A DNA stretch of 64,000 nt from Escherichia phage vB_EcoM_AYO145A: the sequence record KR014248, one strand, 5' to 3'. Numbering within the stretch: the stretch's first letter is position 1; every line of letters starts with the position of its first letter. Under the pieces are notes generated by a model. That model did not search any database, had not been told where the DNA came from, and saw only the letters and a list, made by a program, of their open reading frames with translations. The translations under genes and the position numbers were made by a program. This document shows positions 1,360 through 5,783 of the stretch, one piece after another.

Positions 1360-1389
1360 TTGACAGACTCTACAAAGTTGCTCTAAAGT
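1360..1389 (+). promoter_or_regulatory. sigma70-like promoter upstream of the Ro60-like gene
   Basis: TTGACA at 1360-1365, an 18-nt spacer, TAAAGT at 1384-1389. Preceded by TTTTAAAAGG. Confidence 0.55.
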
Positions 1390-1428: not shown

Positions 1429-2844
1429 ATGAGCGAATTATTTAAACATGCGCACCTTCATGCAGGTCGAACTGAAAATGGTGCTGTAAACCATACTTCA
1501 TCAATGTCTGCTCTTGTAGACTTTTACAAAGCTGCTGGTTCTAGCCGTAGCAATGTAGGAATCTTACCAGACCTGTTCTACAAAGCTTTGCGTGAGGATG
1601 TTGATGTTGCAGTTCGTATTTTGCTTCATATGCGAGATGTACGAGAAGGTATGGGTGAGCGTAAAGCTTTCCGAACTGTTTTACTTCAAGCGATTGAAGA
1701 TAAAGTTTTAGAGCCTACGCAGGTTCTTCGCATTATGGATAAGATTGCAGAGCTTGGTCGTTTTGATGACTTCAAAATCTTCGTGGGTACTCGTTTCGAG
1801 ACAGATGCCTTCAAACATTTAGAAGCAGCATTACTAGACCCTGCAACAGCAGGTTTGGCAGCTAAGTGGTTACCACGAGTCAAACCACGTCATAAGCAGT
1901 TTGTAAAACGTTTCTGCAAGTTTGCAAACTTGAGTGAGAAAGAGTACCGCACACTGTTGTCTGCACTATCTGATACAGTTGAACAAAAAATCTCTGCTAA
2001 TGAGTTTGGTAAGATTGACTACAGTAAGATTCCTTCACTTGCTGCTGCACGTTACCAAAAACTCTTTAACCGTAAAGATGGAGAACGCTACAAAGCTTAC
2101 ATCGAGTCACTCTCAAAAGGTGAGGCCAAGATTAACGCTGGTGCTGTTTACCCATACGATGTGATTAAATCTATCAAGTATGGTAATGCAGATGTTGCTA
2201 ATGAGCAGTGGAAAGCACTACCAAACTGGATGGTAGAAGGTGAAAACATCCTGTGTATGACTGATGTTTCAAGCTCAATGTCTTGGGTGAATCTTGGTTC
2301 AATCACTGCCCTTGATATTGGTGTATCCCTTGCCTTGTATGTAGCAGAACGCAATACAGGTTGTTTTAAGAATGAGTTAATGGTTTATTCAACAAACCCT
2401 CATTTCATCGAATTGAGTGGTGATTTACGAAACCGTCATCGTCAGATAATGCGTCATGTTGAATATGGCTCAACTAACTTACAAGCAGCTTTTGACCGTA
2501 TTCTTGAAATAGGCAAGAGAAACAACTTGACTCAGAAAGATATGCCAAGTAAGCTTATTATCTTCTCTGATATGGAGTTCAATCAGGTTGATGGAGCTAA
2601 CGGTCGTACAAACTTTGAAGCAATTCAGAGTAAGTACAAAAAAGCTGGATATGAGATGCCACAACTGGTATTCTGGTACTTAGCAAACCGTAATGGTACT
2701 TGCGAAGTATCTGTTAAGGATAATGGTGTAGCAATGGTATCAGGGTTCTCTCCAGCCACTTTAAAAGCTCTGCTTGGTGGTGAGAAGTTTGACCCAATCA
2801 GCGTAATGCTCAAAGCAGTAATGATTGACCGTTATATCTGGTAA
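1429..2844 (+). CDS. Ro60-like protein: TROVE/DUF2828-like N-terminal region plus C-terminal vWA domain with MIDAS motif
   Basis: 471 aa. MIDAS DxSxS is present (CMTDVSSSM). The blocks DVSSSM, GSTN, IIFSDME, KYKKAGYEMPQLVFW and MVSGFSP occur in the same order as the Ro60 vWA blocks DVSASM, GGTD, IVFTDNE, YRKKMDIPAKLIV and DMCGFD. The N-terminal TENGAV...LVDFY resembles the DUF2828 signature. Confidence 0.65.
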   Translation: MSELFKHAHLHAGRTENGAVNHTSSMSALVDFYKAAGSSRSNVGILPDLFYKALREDVDVAVRILLHMRDVREGMGERKAFRTVLLQAIEDKVLEPTQVLRIMDKIAELGRFDDFKIFVGTRFETDAFKHLEAALLDPATAGLAAKWLPRVKPRHKQFVKRFCKFANLSEKEYRTLLSALSDTVEQKISANEFGKIDYSKIPSLAAARYQKLFNRKDGERYKAYIESLSKGEAKINAGAVYPYDVIKSIKYGNADVANEQWKALPNWMVEGENILCMTDVSSSMSWVNLGSITALDIGVSLALYVAERNTGCFKNELMVYSTNPHFIELSGDLRNRHRQIMRHVEYGSTNLQAAFDRILEIGKRNNLTQKDMPSKLIIFSDMEFNQVDGANGRTNFEAIQSKYKKAGYEMPQLVFWYLANRNGTCEVSVKDNGVAMVSGFSPATLKALLGGEKFDPISVMLKAVMIDRYIW

Positions 2845-2862
2845 AAAGTTTTAAAAAGGGTA

Positions 2863-2891
2863 TTGACAATGTGTTTGATACCCTTTAATAT
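2863..2891 (+). promoter_or_regulatory. sigma70-like promoter, first of two ahead of the tRNA array
   Basis: TTGACA at 2863-2868, a 17-nt spacer, TAATAT at 2886-2891. Preceded by TTTTAAAAAGGG. Confidence 0.65.
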
Positions 2892-2953
2892 GTTCTACAT
2901 AGAAACAAAATGAGAGCTTTTCTAAGATACTGAAAAATATTTTAAAAAAGTTC

Positions 2954-2983
2954 TTGACAACCACTAAAAAATAATGTTAAAGT
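2954..2983 (+). promoter_or_regulatory. sigma70-like promoter, second ahead of the tRNA array
   Basis: TTGACA at 2954-2959, an 18-nt spacer, TAAAGT at 2978-2983. tRNA-Pro starts at 3010. Confidence 0.6.
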
Positions 2984-3009
2984 GGTTACATAGAGTTTGA
3001 AAAGTTTAT

Positions 3010-3086
3010 CTCTGTTTAGCTCAGCTTGGTAGAGCGTTCCGTTTGGGGCGGTAAGGCCGGAGGTTCAAGTCCTCCAACAGAGACCA
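3010..3086 (+). tRNA. tRNA-Pro (anticodon TGG)
   Basis: Cloverleaf folded by eye. Acceptor CTCTGTT/AACAGAG, D-stem GCTC/GAGC, anticodon loop TTTGGGG, T-arm GGAGGTTCAAGTCCTCC. CCA is encoded. Confidence 0.9.
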
Positions 3087-3093
3087 AATTAAT

Positions 3094-3171
3094 GTTCCAG
3101 TAGACAAAATGGTAAAGTCACCACTCTTTCAAAGTGGATATTTGAGGGTTCAAATCCCTTCTGGAACGCCA
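3094..3171 (+). tRNA. tRNA-Glu (TTC)
   Basis: Acceptor GTTCCAG/CTGGAAC, anticodon stem-loop CCACT-CTTTCAA-AGTGG, T-loop TTCAAAT. CCA is encoded. Confidence 0.88.
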
Positions 3172-3178
3172 GTTTTGA

Positions 3179-3251
3179 CAGAAGACCAATTACAGCAAAC
3201 TTAATCTTATTCATCTGACACGAAATCGGACAAAGAAGAGATTTGGTCTGG
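3179..3251 (+). ncRNA. Y-RNA-like small RNA YL1 (conserved-clamp family, no tRNA module)
   Basis: 5' CAGAAGACC (3179-3187) and 3' GGTCTGG (3245-3251). Helix AGACCAA/TTGGTCT, with the conserved 5' extension TTACAGCAAA. Lies between tRNA-Glu and tRNA(CAT), 7-11 nt from each. Confidence 0.55.
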
Positions 3252-3262
3252 TCATTAAGAAT

Positions 3263-3339
3263 TGCGGGTATAGAGAAAGGGCGTCTCACATGTCTCATTA
3301 GCATGGTATCGGCAGGTTCGACTCCTGCACCCGCCTCCA
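3263..3339 (+). tRNA. tRNA with CAT anticodon (Met or Ile2); acceptor register uncertain
   Basis: D-stem GAGA/TCTC, anticodon stem-loop CATGT-CTCATTA-GCATG, T-arm GCAGGTTCGACTCCTGC, 3' ACCCGCC-T-CCA. The best acceptor pairing leaves a 1:72 T-C mismatch. Confidence 0.75.
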
Positions 3340-3345
3340 ATTTTG

Positions 3346-3405
3346 CAGAAGACCGTATGCAGCAATAAACTACTTTTTGCGGATAAAAGAAAAAACACGG
3401 TCTGG
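3346..3405 (+). ncRNA. Y-RNA-like small RNA YL2
   Basis: 5' CAGAAGACC (3346-3354) and 3' GGTCTGG (3399-3405). Helix AGACCGT/ACGGTCT covaries relative to YL1. Motif TGCAGCAA. Lies between tRNA(CAT) and tRNA-Asn. Confidence 0.55.
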
Positions 3406-3416
3406 CAATGTATTAA

Positions 3417-3493
3417 GGTTAGGAAGCACATAAGGTATGTGCGGTCGCCTGTTAAGCGAATGGCACAGGGTTCGAATCCCTGACTAACCGCCA
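3417..3493 (+). tRNA. tRNA-Asn (GTT)
   Basis: Acceptor GGTTAGG/ACTAACC (7:66 mismatch), D-stem GCAC/GTGC, anticodon loop CTGTTAA, T-arm CAGGGTTCGAATCCCTG. CCA is encoded. Confidence 0.85.
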
Positions 3494-3502
3494 AATTTAA
3501 AT

Positions 3503-3590
3503 GTGTCGTTATCCCGTAGATGGTAGCGGTGGGGACTGTAAATCCCTTGTCATTGAGACTCGGTAGGTTCGACTCCTACACGGCACACCA
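3503..3590 (+). tRNA. tRNA-Tyr (GTA), type II
   Basis: Acceptor GTGTCGT/ACGGCAC, anticodon stem-loop GGGGA-CTGTAAA-TCCCT, long variable arm, T-arm GTAGGTTCGACTCCTAC. CCA is encoded. Confidence 0.88.
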
Positions 3591-3596
3591 AATAAA

Positions 3597-3674
3597 GGTT
3601 ATGTAGTTTAATCTGGTTAAAATACTCCCCTGTCACGGGAGATGATGAGGGTTCAAATCCCTTCGTAACCGCCA
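3597..3674 (+). tRNA. tRNA-Asp (GTC)
   Basis: Acceptor GGTTATG/CGTAACC, anticodon stem-loop CTCCC-CTGTCAC-GGGAG, T-arm GAGGGTTCAAATCCCTT. CCA is encoded. Confidence 0.88.
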
Positions 3675-3728
3675 AATTATAATAAGTATTCCAAGATGAT
3701 GTTTTGAGAGGGCTATTTAGCCCCTCCC

Positions 3729-3756
3729 TTAAAGAGTTCTTACGAGTATTCTTTAA
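3729..3756 (+). repeat. conserved-loop hairpin H1 (family of 3-4 in the tRNA array)
   Basis: Stem TTAAAGA/TCTTTAA, loop GTTCTTACGAGTAT. Ends 5 nt before YL3. Confidence 0.6.
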
Positions 3757-3761
3757 AGGAG

Positions 3762-3838
3762 CAGAAGACCAAATTCAGCAAGTACGTATGATATTTTCAA
3801 GCCAATTTAATTTTGAAAAAATTTAAAACTTGGTCTGG
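3762..3838 (+). ncRNA. Y-RNA-like small RNA YL3
   Basis: 5' CAGAAGACC (3762-3770) and 3' GGTCTGG (3832-3838). Helix AGACCAA/TTGGTCT, motif TTCAGCAA, internal hairpin TTTTCAA/TTGAAAA. Confidence 0.55.
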
Positions 3839-3851
3839 CTCAACAAATTTA

Positions 3852-3983
3852 CAGAAGACCGTTTACAGCAAAACTTAAACAATCTATTTCTCCGGTAAAG
3901 AAAAGGCGAAGGTTCGATTCCTTCACTCGGCAGATGTCGAGTTGGTGTAATGGTAGCACTTAAGATGATAAACAACGGTCTGG
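3852..3983 (+). ncRNA. Y-RNA-like small RNA YL4 with a circularly permuted tRNA-like module (YrlA-like architecture)
   Basis: Clamp CAGAAGACC (3852-3860) and GGTCTGG (3977-3983). Helix AGACCGTT/AACGGTCT, then CTTAA (3874-78)/TTAAG (3960-64). T-arm GAAGG-TTCGATT-CCTTC (3908-24). Acceptor 3' strand ACTCGGC (3925-31), 4-nt AGAT link, acceptor 5' strand GTCGAGT (3936-42). D-arm GTGT-AATGGTA-GCAC (3945-59). Confidence 0.65.
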
Positions 3984-3984
3984 T

Positions 3985-4128
3985 AATTATCTTTGTAGAT
4001 AAGTTATTAAGCTTACCTGTGAGTATGCGACCACAAAGGGTGAAAGGGTAAATTCTAGATTTAAACCCAACAAGGCACATCGCTACAGACCTTAAGCAAG
4101 TCTGGGTAGCTTATCTACAAAGATAATT
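3985..4128 (+). ncRNA. structured element closed by a 19-bp perfect stem
   Basis: AATTATCTTTGTAGATAAG (3985-4003) pairs perfectly with CTTATCTACAAAGATAATT (4110-4128). The interior contains hairpin GCTACAGAC-CTTAAGCAA-GTCTGGGTAGC, which echoes the YL clamp. Confidence 0.45.
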
Positions 4129-4133
4129 TTAAT

Positions 4134-4839: not shown

Positions 4840-4922
4840 GTGGGACGATGTTAAGACTCTAAGGCATGAGCAACGGCTTCCAACACCGTTTCAAAGGGGT
4901 TCAACTCCTCCGTCCCATGCCA
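4840..4922 (+). tRNA. atypical tRNA-like gene, best read as tRNA-Trp (CCA)
   Basis: Acceptor GTGGGAC/GTCCCAT, discriminator G, CCA, T-loop TTCAACT. The anticodon region reads either ACGGC-TTCCAAC-ACCGT (CCA, C31-A39 mismatch) or AACGG plus a 9-nt loop. The D region is oversized. Trp is otherwise the only amino acid missing from the array. Confidence 0.5.
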
Positions 4923-4935
4923 AAGTCTTATTAGG

Positions 4936-5023: not shown

Positions 5024-5280
5024 CCTAATAAGATTTAAAGCCAAGCTTCATTCGGATGTTGCTTTGGTATACCGCGTGTATTGTTGTACGCACTGATAAA
5101 GCACCTAGTAGGTGTCACGGAGAAGAGATAATATCAAGCTCTCCAAAGGTTCTAGTCACCGGATTAAACAAGACTATGCAAAGACCTTTTTAGGTCTTTT
5201 TAGAGGGCTTCTAAGGTTATTACAGCTTGTTGTGGAACCTTGTTGCTTAGGTTCTTAGAAGTTCTCTAAAAAGACTTAAT

Positions 5281-5358
5281 GGGAGATTGACGGTAATTGG
5301 TAAACCTATCTCGCTTAGAACGAGATGTTTGAGGGTTCGAATCCCTTGTCTCCTACCA
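5281..5358 (+). tRNA. tRNA with TAG anticodon (Leu), short variable region
   Basis: Acceptor GGGAGAT/GTCTCCT, anticodon stem-loop TCTCG-CTTAGAA-CGAGA, T-arm GAGGGTTCGAATCCCTT, A73, CCA. At 78 nt it lacks a type II long arm. Confidence 0.75.
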
Positions 5359-5687: not shown

Positions 5688-5690
5688 ATT

Positions 5691-5779
5691 CAGAGGTCAA
5701 GTGAAAGACCGCTTTGAGTCAACTGAAGACCGTAACAAATTCCACGGAGTTGAGTTAGCGGCACAACTCCAGACCTCTT
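5691..5779 (+). ncRNA. structured spacer element between tRNA-Thr and tRNA-Val
   Basis: Outer stem AGAGGTC (5692-98)/GACCTCT (5772-78), inner hairpin GGAGTTG/CAACTCC. Contains CTGAAGACCGT, which resembles the YL 5' motif. Confidence 0.35.
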
Positions 5780-5783
5780 TCAT

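Follow-up and report, generated by a model that had tools for sequence, protein, structure and literature searches.

In this study of a 64,000-nucleotide (nt) stretch of the Escherichia phage vB_EcoM_AYO145A (record KR014248; the whole stretch is referred to below as the window), we found that the gene of a predicted Ro60-like ring protein is followed by four small structured RNA elements, here called YL1 to YL4, and that the core of these elements recurs beside homologous genes in distantly related phages. Particles of Ro60 and Y RNA have been described in animals, in bacteria and in a small number of phages. The RNA module described below exists, is conserved, covaries, is linked to the gene and is specific to the protein family. 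Our reading, to which we assign a probability of roughly 0.65, is that the phage encodes a Ro60-like ring protein and cognate Y-like RNAs, which would be released from a tRNA precursor and recognised through this module, and that together they would act in RNA surveillance or repair, or in counter-defence. An initial annotation of the window had proposed such a pairing; its finding is real and its reading essentially right, although the system is less novel at the protein level, and more interesting at the RNA level, than had been supposed.

The source is a Felixounavirus: positions 1429-4133 of the window are 97.6% identical to the corresponding DNA of two Escherichia phages, EcoM2 and JH2, and matches to this region were found in 294 phage records. 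The open reading frame of 471 aa was confirmed, and an array of 25 tRNA genes begins at 3010 on the same strand. A repeat search retrieved a 28-nt family with exactly four copies, at 3171, 3338, 3754 and 3844, and the 9-mer CAGAAGACC is present without mismatch at 3179, 3346, 3762 and 3852, with one other occurrence in the 64 kb. The four copies share a common fold, in which a lower stem of 4 bp is joined through an asymmetric loop, with AGA in its 5' strand and G in its 3' strand, to a helix of the form AGACCNN/NNGGUCU, whose 5' strand is followed by three nt, the hexamer CAGCAA and a variable apical part (Table 1). Applied to the plus strand of the whole window, a structural descriptor of this fold found YL1-4 and nothing else; the hexamer alone occurs 39 times on the plus and 40 times on the minus strand. 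YL1 lies in the spacer between tRNA-Glu and tRNA-Met, YL2 in that between tRNA-Met and tRNA-Asn, and YL3 and YL4 follow tRNA-Asp. All four share the strand of the gene and lie 332-1142 nt past its stop codon. The four paralogous small-RNA elements announced by the initial annotation are thus present. Among Felix-like relatives the YL core was invariant and the apical parts were swapped out, and the lower stem of YL2 was seen to covary (UUGC/GCAA versus UUAC/GUAA). The lower stem and the AGA/G loop are features specific to the Felix clade.

Table 1. Features of the locus (window coordinates)
Feature	Position	Strand	Description
YL1	3176..3254	+	lower stem 3176-3179/3251-3254; AGA loop 3180-3182; helix 3183-3189/3243-3249; CAGCAA 3193-3198; unpaired G 3250
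YL2	3343..3408	+	lower stem 3343-3346/3405-3408; helix 3350-3356/3397-3403; CAGCAA 3360-3365; G 3404; followed by tRNA-Asn at 3417
YL3	3759..3841	+	lower stem 3759-3762/3838-3841; helix 3766-3772/3830-3836; CAGCAA 3776-3781; G 3837
YL3 apical hairpin	within 3759..3841	+	UUUUCAAG...UUUUGAAAA
YL4, tRNA-like	3849..3986	+	lower stem 3849-3852/3983-3986; helix 3856-3862/3975-3981; CAGCAA 3866-3871; G 3982
YL4 hairpins	3887-3903; 3908-3924; 3925-3942; 3945-3959	+	V; T arm (loop UUCGAUU); acceptor-like closed hairpin; D arm (GG in loop)
Predicted Ro60-like ring protein, 471 aa	1429..2844	+	N-terminal DUF2828 helical-repeat ring (model); C-terminal DUF7788 vWA with complete MIDAS; orthologue of Bas63 gp130
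Sigma-70-like promoter 5' of the Ro-like gene	1360..1389	+	TTGACA-18-TAAAGT; 10/12 positions; consensus match only
Two sigma-70-like promoters	2863-2891; 2954-2983	+	10/12 positions each; consensus match only
tRNA-Pro and tRNA-Glu	3010..3171	+	3' end of tRNA-Glu abuts YL1
tRNA-Met	3263..3339	+	between YL1 and YL2

Eighty loci encoding relatives of the protein were gathered, of which 75 stand at 39-47% identity (numbers of the form L006 identify individual loci). In the phage of locus L006, whose protein is 47% identical, copies were found in its own tRNA array with the helix AGAGCAC/GUGCUCU or AGAGCAG/CUGCUCU, and with CAGCAA still 10 nt from the helix start. A covariance model (R1) built from 87 spliced core constructs recovered only the shortest copy, YL2 (23.7 bits, E 0.003), and with the filters off YL1, YL3 and YL4 could not be separated from noise, owing to the penalty on apical inserts of 40-240 nt. 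An explicit descriptor was therefore used, with strand and shuffle controls. It was derived from the Felix copies and locus L006, and consists of a 7-bp helix, three nt, CAGCAA, 14-250 nt, the pairing strand and G. A stricter first version gave 52 matches on the gene strand versus 1 on the opposite strand, and a relaxed one 126 versus 12. The final descriptor, run on 79 loci comprising 918 kb, gave 105 gene-strand matches versus 4 on the opposite strand, the expectation from 20 dinucleotide shuffles being 5.05 ± 2.6. In the 75 distant loci, 78 of the 102 plus-strand matches lay within 700 nt of the gene, a zone that makes up 13% of the flanking DNA, and 53 loci had at least one match within 1.5 kb of the gene. 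Most of the remaining 22 contain recognisable CUGCAA variants, such as AAGAUGUAUWCUGCAA...ACAUCUUG in phages with Bacteroidota-type promoters. The signature is hence linked to DUF2828 genes well beyond the Felix-like phages.

We then counted, in 90 unique instances of the element, features beyond those that the descriptor demands. The second position of the helix was G in 97% of the instances and the first was A in 79% or U in 18%; the two bases preceding CAGCAA were U (90%) and A (69%); the 10 nt after the hexamer were almost free of G, and the 3' junction was rich in A. Each of the seven helix pairs was formed by 2-5 pair types, and an eighth pair was present in 21% of the instances, from which it follows that the helix is fixed at seven pairs and free in sequence. 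With flanking pairs formed in 40%, neither a longer helix nor a lower stem in fixed register was supported as a family-wide feature. The elements fall into size groups of 33-38 nt (copies in gene leaders), 47-72 nt, 86-136 nt and 150-254 nt, those with a T arm measuring 97-136 nt. When IMG/VR was scanned with the sequence part of the motif as pattern, 120 stretches were retrieved, with 17 matches whose helix pairs perfectly; about 11 of these are intergenic and genuine-looking, and for three the stored stretch includes a same-strand DUF2828 gene.

Two subclasses of element were noticed in passing. An apical hairpin of the form UCAAACUUUUAAUUUGA is common to YL3, L066 (5908-5967), L078 (5887-5943), L100, L101, L104, L107 and L144; some elements of this subclass lie in stretches without a DUF2828 gene within several kb. 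Short-type elements about 20-30 nt past the gene (L009, L014, L016, L018-L020, L023, L024, L026 and L028) have a large, nearly G-free loop with two or three extra AGCAA/CGCAA repeats, and a second element directly behind the first.

Named phages carry the signature over a wide range of protein identity to the window protein, in every case on the gene strand, so that the co-occurrence of protein and RNAs is conserved well past the Felix-like phages. Shigella phage Sf14 (84%) has four elements; Klebsiella phage KP13-16 (51%) has at least four, three of them tRNA-like; Mycobacterium phage LeBron (31%) has three directly after gp53, the middle one tRNA-like; and Listeria phage List-36 (28%) has three directly before gp168. 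Two elements each were found in Campylobacter phage F368 (37%) and Bacillus phage PJN02 (33%), three in tandem in Staphylococcus phage S-CoN_Ph8 (30%), one in Enterococcus phage VRE9_3 (34%) and one, in the leader, in Sinorhizobium phage phiM19 (38%). Synechococcus phage B23 (35%) contains variants only, and the signature also stands beside DUF2828 genes in phages of Vibrio-type hosts. The elements are unannotated in the phage records that we inspected. The 'tRNA pseudogene' and 'tRNA-OTHER' annotations of relatives were considered as possible YL4 counterparts and rejected, as these are tRNA-Tyr.

Two of these loci hold further features of note. In phage B23 (L091, 3848-3957) the annotated 110-nt 'tRNA-OTHER', beside the variant YL elements, is an unpermuted tRNA-like RNA in which a long insert containing CUGCAA occupies the anticodon position. 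In List-36 (L084, 3459-7521) the Ro-like gene lies 1.3 kb upstream of genes for an RtcB 'tRNA splicing ligase' and an HD phosphohydrolase, an order that echoes the bacterial rsr-yrlA-rtcBA operon; linkage to RtcB was found in no examined locus other than that of the Listeria phage.

The 471-aa protein matches the Pfam families DUF7788 (residues 275-455, E 2e-43) and DUF2828 (E 9.6e-29), and PHROG 850, annotated as 'RNA-binding protein', over residues 1-471 (E 1.5e-182). VWA_2 was matched weakly (24 bits, under the cut-off of 27), and no NCBIfam family was found. The vWA domain with a MIDAS (metal ion-dependent adhesion site), as claimed initially, is present: DVSSSM at 279-284 is a DxSxS motif, and none of the five MIDAS residues D279, S281, S283, T349 and D381 varies among 36 aligned relatives, which range down to 40% identity. 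The claim of a Ro60-like fold also held. An AlphaFold2 model (pLDDT 89, pTM 0.88) was compared with the Protein Data Bank (PDB) by Foldseek, and the first 11 matches were all Ro60, aligned over the whole chain with E 4e-9 to 6e-7. They include the Ro60 of Thermus phage phiLo (9l5y/9kop), which is the best match, and those of Xenopus (2i91/1yvp/1yvr) and human (9nfa/9nep/9nf8) as well as Deinococcus Rsr (2nvo); after these 11, vWA domains alone were matched. The modelled fold of the DUF2828 protein is thus a helical-repeat ring with a vWA domain, as in Ro60.

The proposed kinship of DUF2828 with TROVE was supported by structure but not by sequence. Pfam TROVE (PF05731) was matched neither by the query nor by any of the 36 aligned relatives, even at E<=10, and no Ro60 was retrieved from the PDB sequences by phmmer or hmmsearch with the protein or its profile. 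The vWA_Ro60 profile matched 6 of the 36 relatives weakly (best E 0.0012), and hhalign against Bxz1 gp220, a canonical Ro60, aligned only 40 columns around the MIDAS with a probability of 40%. On the strength of the model, the protein is probably a distant relative of Ro60, outside TROVE as a sequence-defined family. The family itself is large, with 2837 matches at E<=1e-3 among 8000 candidates scored. By tblastn it was found in 708 phage records, covering phages of Escherichia, Salmonella, Vibrio, Aeromonas, Campylobacter, Sinorhizobium, Synechococcus, Mycobacterium, Listeria, Staphylococcus, Enterococcus and Bacillus; homologues occur in more than 700 sequenced phages, with hosts in at least five bacterial phyla. 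Mycobacteriophage homologues are annotated as 'Ro-like RNA binding protein'.

Partnerships of this kind have precedents. In 22 phages, YrlA-type RNAs were found to adjoin TROVE proteins (Chen et al. 2014, PMC4201824), ROT/TROVE proteins occur in some jumbo phages (Iyer et al. 2021, PMC7824862), and phiLo Ro60 binds two phage Yrl RNAs as well as host PNPase (PMC12135203). Like the phage Ro60s of Bxz1 and ET08 (PMC4201824) and of phiLo (PMC12135203), the window pairs a predicted ring protein with adjacent candidate partner RNAs in one phage; those proteins are bona fide TROVE and vWA_Ro60 members with CGAA-type RNAs, whereas the window family is DUF2828 and has another signature. The likeness extends to bacterial Ro60 (Rsr) with YrlA and YrlB, as in the Deinococcus RYPER and the Salmonella rsr-yrlBA-rtcBA locus. 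There, too, a ring with a vWA/MIDAS domain (as modelled here) is encoded within about 1-2 kb of noncoding RNA genes on the same strand, and several RNAs are found per locus, one of them with V, T, acceptor-like and D hairpins in this order. A place on the strand of the Ro gene and within about 4 kb of it is characteristic of YrlA-type genes, and YL1-4 and their counterparts in relatives lie at such distances. Unlike Rsr, the phage protein lacks a TROVE profile match, and unlike YrlA, the YL RNAs sit inside a tRNA array, have no Rfam match and carry UA-CAGCAA beside a 7-bp helix in place of GNCGAA(N)G or GGUCCGA.

The most telling comparison is between two phages of one host genus. Bxz1 gp220 is a canonical Ro60 (TROVE E 9e-50, vWA_Ro60 E 4e-54), and upstream of its gene (L215, 11762-12244) lie three GNCGAA-type RNAs (GGCCGA(A/G)) in the order short, tRNA-like, short; no CAGCAA-type element was found at this locus. 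LeBron, which infects the same host genus and encodes a DUF2828 protein, has a short/tRNA-like/short trio as well, with the CAGCAA module. As judged from these loci, the signature tracks the protein family and not the host. We consider this contrast our strongest indirect argument that the module is the recognition site of the protein.

The initial annotation had described one of the RNAs as a YrlA-like tRNA mimic. In YrlA the tRNA-like domain is a succession of stem-loops, namely V, T, acceptor-like and D (PMC4201824). The hairpins of YL4 follow the same order, and a partial Rfam tRNA match covers 3875-3925 (22 bits); YL1-3 have no tRNA-like domain. In a permutation test, elements were re-cut at the acceptor-like loop, closed with an artificial anticodon loop and submitted to ARAGORN; since the anticodon loop was artificial, the test addresses only the tRNA geometry of the remaining modules. 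The LeBron and KP13-16 elements treated in this way were both called as tRNAs.

Protein relatives of this kind have received some attention. A 2024 PhageMaP preprint (PMC11482910) reports that gp130 of phage Bas63 has 'high structural similarity to Ro60', lies upstream of tRNAs, acts against the Ppl defence and is required on hosts that carry Ppl, and its authors guessed that Y RNAs may be present among the neighbouring tRNA genes. The protein bas63_0130 is 97.5% identical to the window protein, and Bas63, like the window, has the gene ahead of tRNA-Pro and all four YL elements. The candidate RNAs of Bas63 are not the annotated tRNA genes of the preprint's guess; they occupy unannotated spacers, partly under minus-strand open reading frames. 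These frames, bas63_0137 and bas63_0138 (MZ501086, L086, 16749-17023), overlie YL3, YL4 and a stable structure, and are probably not genes. The preprint describes neither an RNA motif nor an RNA family for gp130. Our literature searches, which were not exhaustive, on DUF2828, on Felixounavirus with Ro60 and on Y RNA-like phage RNAs gave no description of the partner RNAs. The statement of the initial annotation that the pairing had not been described is accordingly too broad for the protein, already known as a Ro60-like anti-Ppl factor with guessed-at Y RNAs, but seems to stand for the RNAs: a widespread RNA class tied to a Ro60-like phage protein family is apparently undescribed.

We propose that the ring protein is a divergent member, specific to phages, of the Ro60 structural class, and that YL1-4 are its cognate noncoding RNAs, in the role that Y RNAs have for Ro60. 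They would be transcribed with the first block of phage tRNAs from promoters at about 2863-2983, and released by tRNA processing, in which RNase P would cut where the downstream tRNA begins and the 3' end of the upstream tRNA would be trimmed; a cut by RNase P at the 5' end of tRNA-Met would set the 3' end of YL1. The two promoters placed by the initial annotation between gene and array are plausible, each matching the consensus, although promoter-like sites are no more numerous in this region than expected from shuffles. The recognition module would comprise a helix of exactly seven pairs, free in sequence save for a second pair G-C, then UA-CAGCAA 10 nt after the helix start with its G-poor tail, an A-rich 3' junction and the unpaired G. 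Its conservation and covariation are observed, and the protein would be what binds it. By analogy with YrlA, Rsr and PNPase, and with phiLo Ro60, the variable apical domain may act as an adaptor, which in YL4 and many relatives appears to be a circularly permuted tRNA. Such an adaptor could bring tRNA-recognising enzymes, nucleases or damaged tRNA to the ring, or could itself be a decoy. During infection the particle might serve RNA surveillance or repair, or counter-defence, which would fit the anti-Ppl phenotype of the Bas63 orthologue.

Several results weigh against this proposal. The folding energies of YL1-4 are not significantly under those of shuffles (z -1.0 to -1.75). Neither of the known Y RNA motifs supports it: the metazoan type GGUC[CU]GA is in none of YL1-4, and the YrlA type GNCGAA(N0-1)G is absent from YL1-3, its sole match (GGCGAAGG at 3905) lying inside the T stem of YL4. 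The mimicry is also uneven, as permuted YL4 was not called by ARAGORN, probably owing to its 29-nt variable region, and a clear T arm was seen in just 12 of the 90 elements. Intergenic, perfectly paired elements were found in four IMG/VR stretches (L100, L107, L144 and L177) with no DUF2828 gene within 2.5-7 kb of flank, the stretches being short, so that it is not established that the RNA implies the gene in the same genome. Finally, plaquing on Ppl is reported to be restored by gp130 on its own, whether supplied by a plasmid or carried by T7 (PMC11482910), which makes the Ppl phenotype independent of the YL RNAs. At gathering scores and at E<=10, Rfam gave only tRNA, tmRNA and obviously spurious weak matches in the window, and at gathering scores it assigned the elements of 10 related loci to no family. 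The Y-RNA-type identity claimed at the outset therefore had to be dropped; measured against any existing model, the YL RNAs are a class of their own and not Y RNAs.

Copies of the module in gene leaders bear on the first of the alternatives. In L008 (5954-5987), L011 (5952-5987), L013 (1764-1796) and L017 (2859-2891), and likewise in L012, L029, L033, L056 and phiM19, a minimal copy of 33-38 nt stops 0-3 nt short of the gene's Shine-Dalgarno sequence, the junction reading ...UCUG-AAGGA/GGAGG in several lineages. L092 (1896-1931) also has a minimal copy directly in front of this sequence, and in F368, as in phiM19, the module lies just upstream of it. Their position suggests translational autoregulation by the protein in some other phages; the leader of the window gene has no copy. 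One could extend this and suppose that the module is throughout a cis-acting operator or processing signal, bound by the protein both on tRNA precursors and on the mRNA that encodes it, with no stable trans-acting RNAs. Besides the leader copies, the many metagenomic loci with a single 57-60-nt copy 20-30 nt past the stop codon, in the position of a 3' untranslated region, would suit such an operator. In the window, however, two promoter-like sites and two tRNAs lie between the gene and the set of copies. Sets of 2-5 copies with elaborate apical domains, including complete permuted tRNAs, would be needless for an operator, and canonical Ro60 loci have the same short/tRNA-like/short layout. We regard this explanation as unlikely.

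Lower again in our estimate is the possibility that the protein acts alone, for example as an inhibitor of Ppl through its vWA/MIDAS domain, and that the YL RNAs have some other partner, for instance host PNPase, RNases or tRNA enzymes, or are decoys that divert anticodon nucleases, so that their linkage to the gene would be a matter of co-regulation alone. It draws on the rescue of T7 by gp130 itself on Ppl hosts (PMC11482910) and on the YL-like elements found kilobases from any DUF2828 gene. It does not account for the module tracking the protein family rather than either host or tRNA array, as the comparison of LeBron with Bxz1 shows, nor for its presence beside the gene in phages without a nearby tRNA and in the gene's own leader.

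T4 offers a point of reference for small stable RNAs in a phage tRNA cluster. Its rnaC and rnaD (species 1 and 2 RNAs; L216, 2909-3172) resemble the YL elements in this respect and lie in an analogous position, at the end of the cluster, and rnaC has a T-arm-like hairpin. The CAGCAA/7-bp module was not found in the T4 tRNA cluster, rnaC and rnaD included, and no Ro-like partner gene is annotated within the 7 kb examined. The notion that YL1-4 are decayed tRNA genes or processing-aid spacers without any tie to the protein can point to these T4 RNAs, to the location in tRNA spacers and to the T and D arms and partial tRNA match of YL4, but is largely refuted by the comparative data, in which the signature stands by the gene without adjacent tRNAs in LeBron, S-CoN_Ph8 and many metagenomic loci, is strongly non-random in strand and position, and is missing from the T4 tRNA region, which lacks an annotated homologue of the gene in the 7 kb examined.

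If the YL RNAs are indeed partners of the ring protein, a wider interpretation may be entertained, to which we hold only tentatively and with less confidence than to the proposal itself. DUF2828 proteins and CAGCAA-class RNAs might form an ancient, phage-specific sister of the Ro60/Y-RNA particle, in which the protein would recognise a module that resembles no known Ro60 site, with autoregulation through leader mimics, and with permuted-tRNA adaptors that would intercept or repair RNA damage inflicted by immunity. Such a particle would be a general RNA-based counter-defence organ of tRNA-carrying phages. Independently of this, the module supplies a searchable signature (7-bp helix, UA-CAGCAA, variable adaptor, 3' G) and candidate ligands for a protein genetically shown to defeat Ppl in Bas63. 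It would explain why spacers that seem 'empty' are conserved in the tRNA arrays of Felix-like phages and of many others, and makes the long-standing question of what small stable RNAs do in phage tRNA clusters directly testable. Bxz1 (GNCGAA) and LeBron (CAGCAA) provide a natural experiment on the divergent RNA codes of related ring proteins within one host genus.

Other parts of the tRNA array are also structured. Between YL4 and tRNA-Lys, positions 3985-4133 are predicted to form a very stable multibranched structure with a closing stem of about 24 bp (z -5.85, minimum free energy -47.9 kcal/mol). Felixounavirus loci conserve it at 95-99%, whereas a search for it in the Mooglevirus Sf14 was negative; Rfam contains no match, and the structure could represent another noncoding RNA. 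The segment 4616-4694 has an Rfam tRNA score of 31.7 bits without a call from ARAGORN, and may be a degenerate or unusual tRNA, since relatives have tRNA-Arg(TCT) in the equivalent position. At about 4841-4923 there is a T-arm-like hairpin, after which come the 3' strand of an acceptor and CCA (repeat copy 4889-4927), with no tRNA call from either tool. Two further structured spacers of the array, 5186-5285 and 5688-5783, are 95-100% conserved among Felix-like relatives; one is a long hairpin with a spurious MIR473 match (34.6 bits), and the other, of 96 nt, has an AGAGGTC/GACCTCT stem.

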